Shown here: positions 27,024 through 57,380 of the stretch, in pieces
Layout of the letters: each line of letters starts with the position of its first letter
How positions within the stretch are numbered: the first letter of the stretch is position 1
NCBI GenBank assembly: GCA_045863855.1
Contig: BTVV01000014.1
Coordinates: 1 to 64,000 of the forward strand
Direction of reading: 5' to 3'
From: Planctomycetota bacterium
Lineage (GTDB): Bacteria > Planctomycetota > SZUA-567 > H5-PLA8
DNA: 64,000 nucleotides
Made by a program: the position numbers and the translations under genes
The notes under the pieces: model-generated
What the model was told of the DNA's origin: nothing
Seen by the model: the letters and a program-made list of their open reading frames with translations, nothing else
Databases searched by the model: none

Positions 27024-27791
27024 ATGACCGACTTCCGAGTGTCGCCCGAGCAGGTGGCTTTTTTCCGCGAGAACGGATTCGTAAGAATCCCGCAAATCAT
27101 TTCAGGACAAGAAGTTGAGTATTTCCGAGGCCTGTTAGAGCGATACTTGGCCGAGCAGGCGCACACGGGTTTGGGTCAGGAAGCCGTCTTGACCCAGATC
27201 GTCAACCACTGGCGCTTGCAGCCGGCGATGCGGGACTTGACCTTCCACCCGAATGTGATTGCAGCCGCCCAGCAACTCGCCGGTGTGAAGCTCCGGCTCT
27301 GGCACGACCAAAGTCTGATCAAGAAGCCGGGCGGGCAGCCCACCGAGTTCCACCAAGGCCTCCCGCATTGGGCGATCGCCAAGACCGAGCACCCCACGTC
27401 CTGCTGGATCGCGCTCTGCGACGTGCCCGCGCGCAAAGGGTGCATGAGTTTTATTCCCGGCTCGCATCGCCGGAGGAACCTCGCTTCGAAGATCGACGTG
27501 AGCGATCCGGGCTGTCTCTTTCGGCAGTGCCCCGAACTGGAATACGAGAGCTTTGTGAGCGTTCCGCTTCGGGCGGGGGATTGTACGTTCCATCATGCGG
27601 TCACCGCACATGCCGCGCACCCGAACCGCACGAGCGAGCCGCGCTATGCGCACGTCGTCAACAGCGTGGATCTGACCACGGTCTATCGGGCCATACCGCA
27701 TAAAGTCACCGATGGACTGAATCTAAGCGAAGGCCAACTTCTCGAAGGCGAGCTGTTTCCGGTGCTCGACGAGGTCCTGGCCGCGCGGTAG
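27024..27791 (+). CDS. PhyH-family Fe(II)/2OG enzyme with HxG motif (possible halogenase)
   Basis: FFRENGF, LWHDQ, FHQG, WIALCDV..KGCMSFIPGSH, FHHAVTAHAAHPN..R. Confidence 0.85.
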   Translation: MTDFRVSPEQVAFFRENGFVRIPQIISGQEVEYFRGLLERYLAEQAHTGLGQEAVLTQIVNHWRLQPAMRDLTFHPNVIAAAQQLAGVKLRLWHDQSLIKKPGGQPTEFHQGLPHWAIAKTEHPTSCWIALCDVPARKGCMSFIPGSHRRRNLASKIDVSDPGCLFRQCPELEYESFVSVPLRAGDCTFHHAVTAHAAHPNRTSEPRYAHVVNSVDLTTVYRAIPHKVTDGLNLSEGQLLEGELFPVLDEVLAAR

Positions 27792-52229: not shown

Positions 52230-52886
52230 CTACCGCGCGGCCAGAATTTCCCGCGCCGCGCGTACGACGCGCCGGCGCAGTGCGTAGCCGCCGATCATCC
52301 CCAGCGCGCCGAAAAGCCCGAGCGGCACGCTCCAGTCCAGGAGGCGTCCGCCCACAAATCCGGGCCAGTTACTGCCGAGATGGATGGCCAAGGCTAAGGC
52401 CATGCAGGCCGGCGAGACGGTGGTGATCCAGCCTGCCGCGATCAGCGTGCTGCGGGCGAGCATGCTCGTGCGCCCCAGCAATTCGGCATGCACCAATCCG
52501 AGTACGGCTCCGTAGAAGATCCAGGCGACGATCAATGGAGCGAGCCAGATCGATACTTCCCAAACGATGCCCACGCCGGGCGTGGCGACCATGATCCCAA
52601 ACGCCGAGCCCAAGGCGATGACGATGACAAGCCACTCGGCGAGCGAACATTGAAGCCGCCGAAACAATAGGTGCCCGAAGTACATGCCCAAACCGGCGGC
52701 GACGGCCACGTTGGCGGCGCTGCCGACGATTTGCAGCCAAGGGGTGAGGATAAACAGGTTGGCGGCGGTGAAGACAAGGGCCAGCGAAACGGCCCAGCGG
52801 AGCATGCCTATATCGAAGCCCGCGCGTTTTGCGCGGAGCGAGCGGTTCGTGAGCGGGACGGTCAAGGCCGCGGCTTGCTCGCTCAT
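52230..52886 (-). CDS. Integral membrane hypothetical protein
   Basis: About six hydrophobic segments; overlaps the upstream stop (ATGA). Confidence 0.75.
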   Translation of the reverse strand: MSEQAAALTVPLTNRSLRAKRAGFDIGMLRWAVSLALVFTAANLFILTPWLQIVGSAANVAVAAGLGMYFGHLLFRRLQCSLAEWLVIVIALGSAFGIMVATPGVGIVWEVSIWLAPLIVAWIFYGAVLGLVHAELLGRTSMLARSTLIAAGWITTVSPACMALALAIHLGSNWPGFVGGRLLDWSVPLGLFGALGMIGGYALRRRVVRAAREILAAR

Positions 52887-54391
52887 TCGCGCAGTTCCTG
52901 GGCGGGCGGCTGTTCGGGTTGGGCGGGCGGCAGGCGGAAAACGGGGTCGTCGGCCGGGGCAATAGAGCTGTTGAGCGTGGGCTTGCCCGACATCTTCAGC
53001 TTTTGAATCGCAGCCTCGGGAATGTGCTCGTTGCTCCAGTGGTTGTAGCCGCCGTCGTCGTGTCCGTCGGCTCCCACGCCGTAGATGCGCAACAAGCCCG
53101 GATGGAGCGGGGGCTCTTCTGGCGCATTGGGAAATTGCCGCACGAAGCCCAGCGGGTCGGAACGACAGCGCAGCGGCATTCCGTTGATCGTATCCGTGGG
53201 TACACGCTCGAGATACTGGGGCGCCAGGTCCTCGATCCGTTCGGGATCGCGCCCGTGCTCTATGCGGTATTCGAGCAGCGCCAGCGCCGTGTCGGCGGCA
53301 AGGGCCTGATCGGCGGAACGAATGTAATTGTCGGCAAAGCGTTCGATGACCGGAATCAGCAACCGAGTGAGCGCGGTGGGGCCGTTCGATTGTTCGTTAA
53401 GGAGTCGGTCCACGGTTCCGGGCTCGATACGCTTGCCGGCTTGGAGCTTCGCAAGCATGAAGCTGTAGATATTCTCCATCGCTTGGCGTTCGGATCCATA
53501 CCAGACGGACCAAACCCCTCCGGCGCGGGGTACGGGAATACCCAGGCCCGCGGCCGCAGGACTTATATTCATTGAAAACATGCCGTCGAATGTATACATG
53601 CCGAACCGGGATTCGCCGTCCAGCAAACGCGCCGCGCGTTCCAGGGGCTGGCGCTTTAAAAAGTTGGCCGCACGGTAGGCGCGCACGTCTTCGAGTTGAC
53701 CGGGCGTATGACGATCCACGATCTGCTGCAAGGTTTGGTCGGCGATGCCGTCCATGGCCACGGCCACCAAGCCGTTGATCAGGATCGGATCGGTTTCGGC
53801 GAAGCGCGCGAGCCGGTAAATGGCTTTCAGCCGTTTCGCCGCGGCTTTGTGGTCACCGGCTCTGGCATGCCAAAGGGCGTCGAGGGCGAGAATCCGCGCC
53901 GCGCGCCGAAGTTGCGCGAGATGCGGAAGCAGGATCCCGAAACCCTTTGAGTAGTCCAAATTCCAGTGGCTGCGTTCCAGCTCGGCCGCGCTCAGGAGGT
54001 CCAGGAGAGACGTTTGAAGAGCCGCGAACTCCGAGGCCACGTTGGGATCGTCCCACATCTCGGGGAGGTAATGTCCGAGTCTGCTTTCGATGTTTTCGGT
54101 GGCGCCGGCCGCATAAACAGGAAAAGCCGCAAAGGCCTTATTCAAAGTGAGCGCGGCATTGTGTTCATCAGCCAACGGCGGCGGCGCTAATTCGTGTAGA
54201 CGTTTTTTGCTTTCCGCGTAATTCGCCTGCGGATCGCCGGCGTCTACGCGCATGATGACCAGAGCCAGCCCGACCGCCAGGCCCAGCGCCAGCGGAAGTT
54301 GCCACAGTACGCGGTGACCGGGGCAGAGGTACCAGGCCGCCAAGGCCGCGCGGTCGAGTCTGCCGGATGAAGCAGGCGATTCGGTCTGCAT
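52883..54391 (-). CDS. Membrane-anchored helical protein with GspG-like C-terminus
   Basis: TM; LALLEYRIEHGRDPERIEDLAPQYL..PTD...IYGVGADGHDDGG. Confidence 0.7.
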   Translation of the reverse strand: MQTESPASSGRLDRAALAAWYLCPGHRVLWQLPLALGLAVGLALVIMRVDAGDPQANYAESKKRLHELAPPPLADEHNAALTLNKAFAAFPVYAAGATENIESRLGHYLPEMWDDPNVASEFAALQTSLLDLLSAAELERSHWNLDYSKGFGILLPHLAQLRRAARILALDALWHARAGDHKAAAKRLKAIYRLARFAETDPILINGLVAVAMDGIADQTLQQIVDRHTPGQLEDVRAYRAANFLKRQPLERAARLLDGESRFGMYTFDGMFSMNISPAAAGLGIPVPRAGGVWSVWYGSERQAMENIYSFMLAKLQAGKRIEPGTVDRLLNEQSNGPTALTRLLIPVIERFADNYIRSADQALAADTALALLEYRIEHGRDPERIEDLAPQYLERVPTDTINGMPLRCRSDPLGFVRQFPNAPEEPPLHPGLLRIYGVGADGHDDGGYNHWSNEHIPEAAIQKLKMSGKPTLNSSIAPADDPVFRLPPAQPEQPPAQELRE

Positions 54392-54530
54392 CTTCCTATC
54401 TTACTTCATCGGTGCTTATCCTTACAGGCGCACTCGTGCGCGTTGACGATGGCCGGTCGTTGGCCTAATCTGCTCCCTCTTTATTGGGGAGGCGGTGCGG
54501 ATCCCCGCGAATCGGAAGGGAGCGGTTTCG

Positions 54531-56504
54531 ATGGCGTCGGTGCTTGAAGCCCTGGAAGCTCTGGAGGCGGAGGCGCGCAGCGCATTCGCCGCGGTGAAGT
54601 CGGCCGAGGACCTGGAGAAGGTCCGCATCGAGTACTTGGGCAAGAAAGGCAAGTTGAAGGACGCCAAAGCGCAGGTGGGCCAGGCCGCGGCCGAAGACCG
54701 GCCCAAAGTCGGCGCGCGCGCGAAGGAACTCGAGGCCGCCGTGCAAGTCTGCTTCGAAGAGGCGCAAGCGCGGCTGGTTTCCGGCGGCCCGGCGCTGAGC
54801 GGCGTCGAAGCGCTGCGCGACGAGCGGATCCAGAAGCTGAAGAAGTACGAAGCCGTACACGGCGCAGGCAGCGCGTGGGGCGCGCGCTTCGCCAACGTCT
54901 CGGCCATCGAGGATCTGCGCAAGAAGTTTCCAGCGCTGGCCGAGGGCCAGCCACCGGACAGTAACCAGACCCTGGGCACAGGCCGGATCGCCGCACGCGT
55001 GATGCTGCGCCGCGACCAGTCCAAGAAGCTGATCTTCCTGACGGTGGCCGACCAGTCGGGCGAGTTGCAGGTGGCGCTCTGGAACAAGAAGCTGCCCGAG
55101 GCGGCGCTGGACCTCCTGCGCGAATCGCTCGACCTGTGGGACCTCGTCGGTGTGGAAGGCGAGTTGGCTTACACGCAGCGCGGCGAACCCACGCTGTGGG
55201 CGACGGAGATCAAGCTGCTGACGAAGTGCCTCGCGCCGCCGCCCGAGAAGCACCACGGTCTGACGGACAAAGAGACGCGCTACCGGCATCGGCATCTGGA
55301 TCTGATCAGCAATCCGGATTCGCGCAAAGCGTTCATCACGCGCGCGAAGCTTGTCAGCGGCGTACGGCGCTTCCTCGACGATCAGGGCTTCCTGGAGATG
55401 GAGACGCCGGTCTTGCAAACGATCCCCGGCGGCGCGGCGGCGCGCCCGTTCAAGACGCACCTGAACGCGCTGGGCATCGACATGTTCATGCGCATCGCGA
55501 CCGAGATCCCGCTCAAGAAGCTGCTCGTCGGCGGGCTCGATAAGGTCTACGAACTGGGGCGGATTTTCCGCAACGAGGGTGTGGACTACAGCCACAATCC
55601 CGAATTCACGACAGTCGAATTGTATCAAGCCTACGCCGATCTGCGGGACATGATGGCGCTCGTCGAGAACCTCGCCAGCCACCTCGCGCGGGAACTGACC
55701 GGCGGCACGACGGTCACGTTCCGCGGCAAGCCGGTGAAGCTCGGCGCGCCCTGGCCGCGGCTGGACTATTGCGAACTGCTTGAAAAGCACGCGGGCGTGA
55801 AGGCGACCGACGAAGCGGGCCTGGACCGCAAGATTCGCGAGGCCGGCGAGAACCCGGAAGGGCTCTCGATGGTGGACAAGATCGATGCGGTCTTCGGCAC
55901 GTACGCCGAACCGCACCTGACCGACGCGTGCTTCGTGATCAACCAGCCCGTCGAGATGAGCCCGCTGTGCAAGGCGCATCCGGAGGATGCGGCGAAGGCG
56001 CACCGTTTCGAGGCGTTTGCGGCGAGCATGGAGATCGCGAACGCGTACAGCGAGCTGAACGATCCGTTGGAGCAGCGCAAGCGGCTGGCGGCGCAGATGC
56101 GCGAGACTTGGGCGAAGTTTATGCGCGAAGTGCTGGATGAGCCGGGCGCTTCTATCGGAGCCGATTTGAAGATCGGGATCGAAGGCCTCGTGCAGCGGGT
56201 CGAGCATTCGGCCGACTGGCAACCCACCGGCGACTCCGATGCGAACCGCCTGCTGCGGTCGATCGAGGCTCAGGTCAAGACCTGGAAACGGAAGGACTAT
56301 TTTTTCGAACGCATGCAGCGCCTGGAAGATCCGTCGCTGTTGATCGACGAAGACTTCCTCCACGCGCTCGAGCACGGCATGCCGCCCGCCGGCGGGATGG
56401 GCATCGGGATCGACCGCGTCTGCATGCTCATCACGGGCTGCGATTCGATCCGCGACGTGATTCTGTTCCCGCTGATGCGGCCGGAGAAGGGGAGTGGGCA
56501 GTAA
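54531..56504 (+). CDS. lysS: Lysine--tRNA ligase (class II) with PheRS-alpha-like N-terminal arm and catalytic-domain insert
   Basis: OB fold, RYRHRHLDL, GGAAARPF, motif 2 FRNEG..HNPEFT, EIANAYSELNDP, motif 3 GMPPAGGMGIGIDR. Confidence 0.95.
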   Translation: MASVLEALEALEAEARSAFAAVKSAEDLEKVRIEYLGKKGKLKDAKAQVGQAAAEDRPKVGARAKELEAAVQVCFEEAQARLVSGGPALSGVEALRDERIQKLKKYEAVHGAGSAWGARFANVSAIEDLRKKFPALAEGQPPDSNQTLGTGRIAARVMLRRDQSKKLIFLTVADQSGELQVALWNKKLPEAALDLLRESLDLWDLVGVEGELAYTQRGEPTLWATEIKLLTKCLAPPPEKHHGLTDKETRYRHRHLDLISNPDSRKAFITRAKLVSGVRRFLDDQGFLEMETPVLQTIPGGAAARPFKTHLNALGIDMFMRIATEIPLKKLLVGGLDKVYELGRIFRNEGVDYSHNPEFTTVELYQAYADLRDMMALVENLASHLARELTGGTTVTFRGKPVKLGAPWPRLDYCELLEKHAGVKATDEAGLDRKIREAGENPEGLSMVDKIDAVFGTYAEPHLTDACFVINQPVEMSPLCKAHPEDAAKAHRFEAFAASMEIANAYSELNDPLEQRKRLAAQMRETWAKFMREVLDEPGASIGADLKIGIEGLVQRVEHSADWQPTGDSDANRLLRSIEAQVKTWKRKDYFFERMQRLEDPSLLIDEDFLHALEHGMPPAGGMGIGIDRVCMLITGCDSIRDVILFPLMRPEKGSGQ

Positions 56505-56508
56505 GGCG

Positions 56509-57297
56509 CTACAGCGTCCTTATATGAAACCCGCCGTCCACGTCGAAGACGGCGCCGGTGCTGAAGGGGAAGCTGCCGCGCAGGATGGCGCCGACGGCCA
56601 GCCCGATATCTTCCGGCGTGCCCCAGCGTTTGATCGGGGTCAGGCCGCCTTCGATAAGCTTGTCGTACTTCTCTTTGACGCCGCTGGTCATGTCGGTCGC
56701 GATCACGCCGGGGCGGATTTCGTAAGCCAGGATGTTCTCTTCGGCCAGGCGCGCGGCGAAGAGCGCCGTGACCATACCGAGGCCCGCCTTGGCAATGCAG
56801 TATTCGCCGCGGTTGACCGAGGCCGTATACACGCTGATCGAAGTGATGTTGACGATGTAGCCGCGGTCGAGCTTGCCTTCCTTGCGGAGTTGGATCATGC
56901 GCCGCGCGGCTTGCTGAGTCAGGAAAAACGGGCCTTTCAGGTTCACGTCGAGGACGCGGTCGAAGCTCTCTTCGCCCATTTCGAGCAAGTCCGCGCGCTT
57001 CTGCGGCGCGACGCCCGCATTGTTGACCAACGCGGTGAGTGTCCCAAAACGTTCGACGGCGAAGTCGAGCATGTATTTGCGCTGCGCGGTCTGGCTCAGG
57101 TCGGCCTGCACGGCGGCGGCTTGCCCGCCGGCCTGTTCGATCAGGCCCACGGCTTCCTTGGCCGCGTCGGCGTTGGAGGCGTAGTTGATCACCACTTTCC
57201 AGCCTTGGCGGCCGAGTTCCACCGCGATCCCGCGCCCGATGCCGCGGCTGCCGCCTGTCACCAGCGCCACGCCCGTCTGTTTCGCCGTCTCGTTCAT
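56509..57297 (-). CDS. SDR oxidoreductase (3-ketoacyl-ACP reductase-like)
   Basis: [21 protein letters not shown]. Confidence 0.93.
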
Positions 57298-57380
57298 CTC
57301 GCAGGTGTCCTCCGGCTGAAAGAGTGATAAGGTAACGCTACCGGACGCCATTCGCGCGCGCCAGCGCGGGCATCCGGCCG

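Follow-up and report, generated by a model that had tools for sequence, protein, structure and literature searches.

A PheS-type helical arm at the N-terminus of a bacterial class II LysRS

What is the N-terminal arm of one tRNA synthetase doing at the front of another, and is a gene that joins the two real? The question is raised by lysS at 54531..56504 (+ strand, stop codon included), which, on the combined evidence of its ORF, its match to TIGR00499 and its predicted fold, encodes a 657-aa class II LysRS with a PheS-type N-terminal arm. The gene lies in a window of 64,000 nucleotides (the whole stretch of DNA analysed: positions 1 to 64,000 of contig BTVV01000014.1 from an uncultured Planctomycetota bacterium). 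The longest ORF starts at GTG 54495; relatives begin at the position of ATG 54531, and a Shine-Dalgarno-like stretch of putative function, GGAAGGGAG (54514..54522, +), is found upstream, 8 nt 5' of the ATG.

The enzyme and its parts

Arm and LysRS core share one frame, with no stop between them. Reading from the N-terminus (all features on the + strand), one meets a PheRS-alpha-type helical arm (residues 1-85, 54531..54785); a low-complexity Gly/Pro/Ser/Ala linker (residues 86-90, 54786..54800; pLDDT <50 at 86-89); the N-terminal helix and connector of an ordinary LysRS (residues 91-151, 54801..54983; the helix occupies 91-110, and the match to TIGR00499 begins at residue 97); the OB-fold anticodon-binding domain (residues 152-230, 54984..55220; PF01336, 48.5 bits); the class II catalytic core, which contains motifs 1 and 2 (residues 246-525, 55266..56105; PF00152); a clade-specific helical insert (approximately residues 526-596, 56106..56318; the match to the LysRS model stops at 56105 and is taken up again at 56319); and motif 3 with the C-terminal end of the catalytic domain (residues 597-657, 56319..56501; TIGR00499 positions 440-496). 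The linker varies widely in length among relatives, so the geometry of the arm is not fixed; the stretch preceding the OB anchor runs to 160-215 aa in arm-bearing LysRS versus 67-98 aa in arm-less LysRS.

A Pfam scan of the 657-aa protein places PF00152 on residues 246-525 and on a second stretch. TIGR00499 (lysS_bact) reaches 505.8 bits, over its cut-off of 427.6, with the insert dividing the match into two stretches (506.5 bits at lysS in a genome-wide search). RNEG (R347, N348, E349, G350) and G622, G624, G626 and R629 are invariant, arm-less LysRS included. The top fold matches of the AF2 model of the enzyme are all LysRS (best 9slz_A, E 9.6e-40, TMt 0.85, 37% identity). TIGR00499, the OB domain, motifs 2 and 3, and the fold together point to a bacterial class II LysRS. 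OB domain, core and motifs are common to it and canonical LysS/LysU, and its fold matches the LysRS of T. thermophilus, E. coli and Geobacillus; what sets it apart is approximately 95 extra N-terminal residues, made up of arm and linker, and the insert of approximately 71, both absent from the other LysRS examined.

A converse assignment, to PheS itself, is ruled out: TIGR00468 (PheS) gives 28.3 bits, far short of the 237.45 set as its cut-off, and the score comes solely from the common class II motif region; the genuine pheS is found elsewhere, at G000:C5. No second LysRS comes to light in this genome, which is 93.9% complete: TIGR00499 exceeds its cut-off solely at lysS, and no class I LysRS scores over cut-off. 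Lysylation would follow from this sole-LysRS status, and the enzyme is presumably the housekeeping LysRS that charges tRNALys.

Kinship of the arm with the N-terminal domain of PheRS alpha

A sequence-only reading of this DNA had claimed a PheS-type arm in frame ahead of a LysRS core, and its peptide does correspond to residues 8-77 of the ORF from ATG 54531. It had also named Phe_tRNA-synt_N among the profiles by which the claim could be checked. That profile (Pfam PF02912) matches residues 24-82 (54600-54776; E 2.5e-13, 50.2 bits where 22.3 is the cut-off) over positions 2-60 of its 69, and a search of the whole genome finds it in two places only, pheS and lysS (the latter at 54597-54776, 55.2 bits). 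Judged by profile score, the match in LysRS is far beyond chance.

Searches of the PDB lead to the same family of proteins: PheRS alpha chains only by sequence (6/6), PheRS alpha again by profile (10/10), and no LysRS chain among the matches of either kind. The AF2 model of the arm (pLDDT 90.1) has helices at 4-21, 25-36, 41-51 and 57-84 (pLDDT 81-97). In its fold search, ranks 1-19 as listed are all PheRS alpha chains (TMq 0.66-0.79); these superpose, all but one, with an rmsd of 1.7-2.6 A, M. tuberculosis PheRS-tRNA complexes included. The E-values of the fold matches are weak, 1.2e-3 at best, as is expected because the query is an 80-residue helical chain. Nine columns are invariant across LysRS and PheS arms; L28, E29, R32, G40, K43, P58 and G61 are invariant in both. 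The "chimeric" reading, a PheS-type arm on a LysRS core, is thus borne out by the profile match, the PDB matches, fold TM values of 0.66-0.79 and recurrence in independent assemblies (see below).

The arm is homologous to the bacterial PheRS alpha N-terminal domain (PF02912) and has the same predicted fold, with an rmsd of approximately 2 A over 80 residues. The two differ in their surroundings: in LysRS the arm precedes the OB domain of a class IIb enzyme, while in PheS it precedes the PheS catalytic core; and in LysRS it operates without the PheRS beta subunit, with which the arm cooperates in PheRS, as parts of PMC8136816 describe.

A fusion inherited across one bacterial family

Could the junction be an artefact of assembly or binning that joins the 5' end of pheS to lysS? 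The genome is a MAG of 287 contigs, which lends the suspicion some color, but the same join occurs full-length in 13 genes and truncated in 2, all in assemblies of one GTDB-level family (here f1), some of them of 6-8 contigs, as well as at 13 named, separately deposited MAG loci, and the LysRS arms differ from their genome's pheS arm (33-48% identity). An artefact is scarcely credible, and misassembly of the junction is ruled out because the fusion recurs in independent assemblies. The fusion is real and is inherited across one bacterial family.

Its boundaries are sharp. A second PF02912 match is found in 15 of the 17 genomes of f1 (in frames of 671-779 aa in 13 of them, in contig-end fragments in 2); the two f1 assemblies without one are also without lysS, and the fusion is present in 15/15 f1 genomes that have lysS, across 10 genera. 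The count for the other genomes of the same class is 0/45. A search of 401 genomes from the phylum gives matches that reach into the query's first 8 residues solely in 7 f1 genomes (among the best 150 of 525 matches); among those same best 150 of 525, the best E-value is 1.8e-75 or stronger in f1, and 1.8e-30 or weaker in every non-f1 genome. That ordinary bacterial LysRS is without the arm, as had been asserted at the outset, holds to this extent.

Metagenomic proteins extend the picture: 36 of them have the arm-LysRS join, down to 46% identity. Of the best 150 representatives in an exhaustive profile search, 13 involve the arm: in 5 it is joined to LysRS, 1 is a fragment that covers the arm and the linker, and the remaining 7 consist of a short piece of arm alone. 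In all 137 others the match begins at a profile position of at least 81. A scan for diverged arms detected PF02912 in none of the 8 representatives whose match lies deep inside the protein or starts at the linker of the profile. A word-indexed search with the arm through proteins of 361-1150 aa, too shallow to serve as a census, yielded 3 fused LysRS and 4 long PheS (7 in all). As to whether the architecture is already documented, a point that had been singled out as decisive against the claim, a literature search with most subscription journals outside its coverage found no paper describing a fusion of the PheS arm to LysRS.

Where did the arm come from? The genome's true pheS retains its own arm (it has a PF02912 match of its own), a point that the sequence-only reading had proposed to check, and its description of the arm as "borrowed" fits what is found, in that LysRS arms are nearest to the PheS arms of the same family: their mean identity is 42.9% to f1 PheS arms versus 33.8% to those of other families. 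In a tree of arms, a branch with weak support (74/86) has both the f1 LysRS and the f1 PheS arms on the same side; the tree does not resolve the LysRS arms as a single clade. At the level of sequence, these comparisons establish that the pheS arm was copied onto lysS in f1 while pheS retained its own, with weak support for the donor branch. The copying dates to the origin of f1 or close to it: the 5' end of pheS, which encodes the helical alpha1 arm of approximately 85 residues, was duplicated and placed in frame ahead of lysS, with a flexible linker between the two.

Selection has since kept the arm, to judge by substitution rates. Its dN/dS is 0.11 between genomes G000 and G066 (3 nonsynonymous and 8 synonymous changes) and 0.29 between G000 and G313, values by which the arm is under purifying selection; the catalytic core gives 0.01 and 0.11 for the same pairs, so the arm evolves faster. 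That difference, and the fact that LysRS without an arm works in nearly all bacteria, might suggest that duplication left behind a neutral or vestigial arm from which the enzyme gains nothing. We consider this very improbable: the arm has been kept in frame in every f1 genome with lysS, across all 10 genera, and in the 36 metagenomic proteins, its dN/dS is well under 1, its nine columns remain invariant between LysRS and PheS, and its fold is predicted confidently.

What the arm may do

In PheRS the alpha1 domain binds G19/U20 of the D-loop and C56/G57 of the T-loop, according to those parts of PMC8136816 that deal with tRNA contacts. By analogy, an extra hold on the tRNA elbow is probably what the arm provides in LysRS, and we infer this to be its most likely function. 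Tethered just upstream of the anticodon-binding OB domain, the arm would reach the elbow of the bound tRNALys (the G19:C56 region); the contact would be a second, largely sequence-independent grip on tRNALys, and the grip would either raise tRNA affinity or hold the tRNA through the catalytic cycle. Taken as a whole (the pheS arm copied to lysS and then gripping the tRNALys elbow), this is the explanation to which we lean, with moderate confidence.

The residues that would make the contact are retained in part. The arm profile, 6-86, aligns with chain 7daw_A, 5-85, at equal lengths; on these table coordinates the M. tuberculosis contacts Arg56 and Asn64 should correspond to arm positions 57 and 65. 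Position 57 is K/R in 21/21 arms, and position 65 is N in 18/21 and K in genus g1, while the contacts Arg45 and Asp37 map (by the same table coordinates) to positions 46 and 38, which are not conserved in the arms. A complex prediction of residues 1-90 against residues 96-657 returned "no answer" (score 0.00) and counts neither for nor against contact. The sequence-only reading had suggested that the arm could alter tRNA affinity, specificity or partners. Nothing points to altered specificity, given that the genome has this one LysRS and canonical tRNALys genes of ordinary appearance: those genes, at G000:C2:126845-126920 and C207:1381-1456, specify 76-nt tRNAs, and no special tRNALys (with a long variable arm or an odd length) was found among the tRNALys genes.

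Two further observations run against a grip. The arm is near-neutral (14 K/R versus 15 D/E in residues 1-85) and not markedly basic, while the eukaryotic LysRS helix is strongly basic; and the canonical tRNALys is so ordinary a substrate that nothing in it demands an extra hold.

The N-terminal domain of human LysRS (residues 1-70) touches the tRNA elbow as well as the D- and variable loops, as parts of PMC11643047 report; passages of PMC6213541 describe this domain as one strongly basic helix, disordered unless tRNA is present, and the appended domain of eukaryotic LysRS as absent from prokaryotic LysRS. Helical nature, position and proposed role are alike. The two are nonetheless not homologous, since sequence searches of the PDB with the arm gave no LysRS chain, and the arm is instead a folded four-helix hairpin of near-neutral charge. 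An elbow grip by the arm would be convergent with the eukaryotic domain. Appended tRNA-binding domains are usually viewed as eukaryotic, in line with those same passages of PMC6213541; here a bacterial lineage appears to have made a counterpart for itself by duplicating a tRNA-elbow binder that one of its other synthetases already had. The fusion can be seen as a clean natural instance of modules being shuffled among class II synthetases: donor and recipient both persist in these genomes. It leaves the general principles of aminoacylation unchanged; the full-length and arm-deleted enzymes would make a simple system for gauging elbow contact in a class IIb synthetase, and the arm a portable module for engineering tRNA affinity. 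The N-terminal coiled coil of SerRS touches the body of the tRNA. It is likewise helical and protrudes from a class II synthetase, and has no detectable kinship with the arm (1sry_A stands at fold rank 31, E 3.5, TMq 0.33).

Might the arm instead make contact with protein? Coiled-coil-like helical arms often do, and appended domains of eukaryotic synthetases frequently drive complex assembly, as portions of the literature relate; the arm could then link LysRS with PheRS or some other protein within a small multi-synthetase complex, or pack against the insert of the enzyme itself, which accompanies it in 33 of 34 arm-bearing proteins of the same lineage. We regard this as unlikely. The native PheRS domain is described, in parts of PMC8136816, as a binder of the tRNA D-loop and T-loop; arm and insert are separable, since one protein, P0033, has the arm without the insert; no conserved operon partner was found at 13 related loci, the upstream gene being conserved within the genus only and the downstream genes not being found at those loci; and the linker, predicted with low confidence and variable in length, speaks for an arm that is mobile and not fixed. 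Another thought is prompted by an array of 26 predicted tRNA genes at G000:C1:23667-28178, of which 21 pass the Rfam tRNA threshold, both of its tRNALys copies, at C1:27218-27293 and 27328-27403, among them. These copies differ from canonical tRNALys, and the array, like the arm, is found across f1: clustered multi-segment matches occur in at least 10 f1 genomes, and only single tRNA-sized matches in other families of the class. The arm might accordingly fit the one LysRS to a further, divergent tRNALys set. This is somewhat less probable still: shared distribution amounts to one event of common ancestry and is without statistical weight, and the array tRNALys copies retain G18-G19, C56 and normal length. 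Equally doubtful is a version in which arm and array are linked innovations, one LysRS gripping the elbow of canonical and array tRNALys alike; if true, it would make the fusion a case of a synthetase adapting to an expanded tRNA repertoire and not a generic boost to affinity.

The helical insert ahead of motif 3 is the other peculiarity of this enzyme. Pfam has no match in its approximately 71 residues, its helices are predicted at pLDDT 83-92, and an ESM Atlas search with it returns scores <0.9 only, to small tRNA-synt_2 fragments. It is present in 33/34 arm-bearing proteins (P0025 has it; P0033 is the exception) and in 0/9 measurable arm-less proteins. The insert arose in the same lineage as the arm, and may work with it or independently.

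A lysS gene with two additions

The longest open reading frame over the join between the PheRS-alpha-type N-terminal domain (the arm) and LysRS spans 54495..56504 on the forward strand. Its start is placed at the ATG at 54531 (forward strand) because the equivalent methionine is the first residue in relatives, a GGAAGGGAG stretch precedes the ATG by 8 nt, and the resulting product (P0001) is 657 aa long; residues 8-77 of that product are the peptide cited in the sequence-only reading, which had proposed a chimera with a PheS-type arm in frame with a LysRS core. Such a chimera is what Pfam finds, with the four expected pieces in a single polypeptide: Phe_tRNA-synt_N (PF02912) at residues 24-82 (E 2.5e-13; 50.2 bits vs a cut-off of 22.3), the OB anticodon-binding domain (PF01336) at residues 152-230, and the class II D/K/N core (PF00152) at residues 246-525 together with a second stretch. 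The NCBIfam model for bacterial LysRS, TIGR00499, gives 505.8 bits (cut-off 427.6) in two parts: model positions 7-437 are covered by residues 97-525, and positions 440-496 by a C-terminal stretch that begins at nt 56319 (residue 597). The split match therefore describes an otherwise standard LysRS carrying two additions, about 95 residues at the N-terminus and about 71 residues directly ahead of motif 3.

The second addition (the insert; residues 526-596, window positions 56106-56318, forward strand) is predicted to be helical (pLDDT 83-92) and has no Pfam match and no useful Atlas neighbour. Nine measurable arm-less LysRS have 27-29 residues between the ELND and DxDF motifs. Of 34 arm-bearing proteins, 33 have 67-156; the database protein P0033 has the arm and lacks the insert. 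Arm and insert are thus lineage-mates, yet separable.

The source genome (6.93 Mb in 287 contigs, 93.9% complete) exceeds the TIGR00499 cut-off at lysS alone, all other matches being at 100 bits or less, and has nothing above cut-off for class I LysRS (PF01921). PF02912 occurs in exactly two places, lysS and a 349-aa pheS on contig C5, which keeps an arm of its own. The arm-bearing protein is this genome's housekeeping LysRS, alongside an intact pheS. ORF and Pfam searches place a divergent 502-aa frame without Pfam match upstream of lysS (52883-54391, reverse strand) and a convergent short-chain dehydrogenase downstream (56509-57351, reverse strand), with an M48 peptidase gene beyond the latter. 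Only the upstream gene recurs beside lysS, within the genus alone (two loci, at 93% and 37% identity), and neighbourhood comparison suggests no conserved operon partner.

Identity and distribution of the arm

That the N-terminal domain bears the hallmark of the PheS arm, as the sequence-only reading held, is borne out by more than the Pfam match over cut-off. When residues 1-95 are compared with all PDB chain sequences, the six distinct matches are all PheRS alpha subunits (best, 4p71_C, E 3.1e-8), as are all ten matches of a profile built from 21 arms, Thermus thermophilus 1b70_A and 7daw_A (a 341-residue chain) among them. An AlphaFold2 model made from the arm alignment is confident (mean pLDDT 90.1), with helices at 4-21, 25-36, 41-49 and 57-84, and its listed Foldseek ranks 1-19 against the PDB are all PheRS alpha chains (TMq 0.66-0.79; about 80 columns aligned at rmsd 1.7-2.6 Å, except for a single row at 5.6 Å), several of them from Mycobacterium tuberculosis PheRS in complex with tRNA. 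None of these matches is better than E 1.2e-3, a weakness to be expected when the query is small and helical; the next matches beyond PheRS alpha are unrelated helical proteins with E above 1. A full-length model (pLDDT 85.6, pTM 0.72) shows the same arm, followed by a low-confidence linker (residues 86-89) and then an ordinary LysRS body, similar in fold to solved LysRS structures (9slz_A, TMt 0.85). Sequence and predicted structure agree that this really is a PheRS alpha arm.

Its distribution is narrow. A word-indexed search of ~5.8 billion proteins with residues 1-260 lists 36 proteins at 46-97% identity, every one with PF02912, PF01336 and PF00152 and, where an organism is stated, from "Planctomycetota bacterium". 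Ordinary bacterial LysRS had been said to lack the arm, and the next 84 proteins listed (P0038 onward; 371-539 aa, aligned over 35-68% of the query at 35-53% identity) are indeed without PF02912; among 401 genomes of the phylum, matches that start at query residue 1-4 are confined to seven genomes of the source organism's GTDB-level family, f1 (best 150 of 525 match rows). Of the 17 f1 genomes, from 10 genera, 15 have a second PF02912 match besides pheS, 13 of these matches in open frames of 671-779 aa and two on fragments cut by contig ends, whose arms group with LysRS arms in the tree. The remaining two assemblies (G268 and G408) contain no lysS anywhere, so every f1 genome in which lysS is detectable (15 of 15) has the arm. 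No second match occurs in any of the class's 45 other genomes (40 with one match, 5 with none), a tally that takes in three genomes of the same order, one of them the unpublished G412. Arm and insert are both absent from LysRS of the same order (G410 and G411; 36-37% identity) and of the same class (G394; 47%).

Among the best 150 matches of an exhaustive HMMER profile search over 1.84 billion representatives, only five have the arm joined to LysRS, one is a fragment covering arm and linker and seven are short arm-only pieces; in the other 137 the match begins no earlier than profile position 81. Eight representatives matching deep in the protein, or from the profile's linker onward, all lack PF02912. 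The same N-terminal part is encoded at 13 loci in named records, all uncultured Planctomycetota MAGs from differently named deposits. A misassembled junction is excluded by this recurrence in 15 f1 genomes and at 13 MAG loci.

A full-text literature search returned no publication on the PheS-arm-LysRS architecture; public records call the protein simply lysine--tRNA ligase (among the 36, lysine--tRNA ligase or lysyl-tRNA synthetase, with one "hypothetical protein"). What appears new is the combination of a well-known enzyme with a well-known domain, confined to one uncultured family; the mechanism considered below is a proposal.

Three side observations belong here. The same-order LysRS of G410 and G411 are less similar to the window's (36-37%) than is that of the more distant G394 (47%; loci L068-L070), which hints that lysS was replaced or evolved fast in one of these lineages. 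P0254, a 662-aa LysRS in the representative library, is another unusual fusion, with an N-terminal response-regulator receiver (PF00072, 76.6 bits) and no arm. P0139, with two PF02912 stretches in 163 aa (112 bits in total), may be a fragment or carry the arm in tandem.

Origin of the arm

Within f1, arms from LysRS and from PheS can be aligned along ~85 residues with nine invariant columns, the sole indel being a three-residue insertion in one PheS. Mean identity is 42.9% between LysRS arms and f1 PheS arms, 33.8% between LysRS arms and PheS arms from the class's other families, and 36.0% between f1 PheS arms and those of other families. In a maximum-likelihood tree of 48 arms and 89 columns (leaving aside PheS of other phyla and the PheS arms of G313, G404 and G405), one weakly supported branch (74/86) separates all f1 arms, LysRS and PheS alike, from 18 PheS arms from outside the family; the LysRS arms fall into two groups, each well supported, without resolving into a single clade. 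The simplest reading is that the lineage duplicated a 5' portion of its own pheS and fused it to lysS, at or close to the family's base; f1 pheS is suggested, not proven, as the donor.

A proposed grip on the tRNA elbow, and selection

In M. tuberculosis PheRS, as described in PMC8136816, the alpha1 domain bonds G19/U20 through Arg45, Arg56 and Asp37, and uses Asn64, Ala57 and Arg45 to bond C56/G57 in the T-loop; a 2010 review (PMC3275996) likewise assigns tRNAPhe binding to the coiled-coil fragment. The N-terminal helix of human LysRS is described in PMC11643047 as running along the anticodon arm and touching D20 and D47, so an element just upstream of the LysRS anticodon-binding domain is positioned to reach the elbow. 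The PheS arm, an elbow binder by origin, sits at just that place, and we propose that it provides this LysRS with a further hold on tRNALys, a second contact that depends little on sequence. Equal-length coordinates in a match table, rather than a printed alignment, suggest that the arms match 7daw_A without gaps. Arg56 would then correspond to position 57 (K or R in all 21 arms) and Asn64 to position 65 (N in 18 of 21, K in the source organism's genus), and the positions for Arg45 and Asp37 show no conservation among the arms. Against such a grip stand the near-neutral charge of the arm, the variable length of the linker (160-215 aa precede the OB anchor when the arm is present vs 67-98 aa when it is absent), and the absence of anything unusual in the genome's canonical tRNALys genes. 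In all, the genome has four tRNALys genes, two CUU and two UUU, each 76 nt with ordinary D- and T-loops.

Outside the window, the genome also has 26 predicted tRNA genes arrayed along one strand in the space of 4.5 kb (locus L089; contig C1, 23667-28178). Twenty-one exceed the Rfam tRNA threshold, among them a second copy each of tRNALys(CUU) and tRNALys(UUU), both different from the canonical tRNALys; a second, divergent tRNAPhe copy is also present. Clustered matches to the array occur in at least 10 f1 genomes, other families of the class giving single tRNA-sized matches only. The distribution shared by array and arm amounts to one shared ancestry, and a functional link between them is improbable.

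Selection was gauged by Nei-Gojobori dN/dS between the source genome and two others, G066 and G313. The respective ratios are 0.01 and 0.11 for the catalytic core, 0.03 and 0.20 for the insert, and 0.11 (3 nonsynonymous and 8 synonymous changes) and 0.29 for the arm: the arm is clearly under purifying selection, with weaker constraint than the core.
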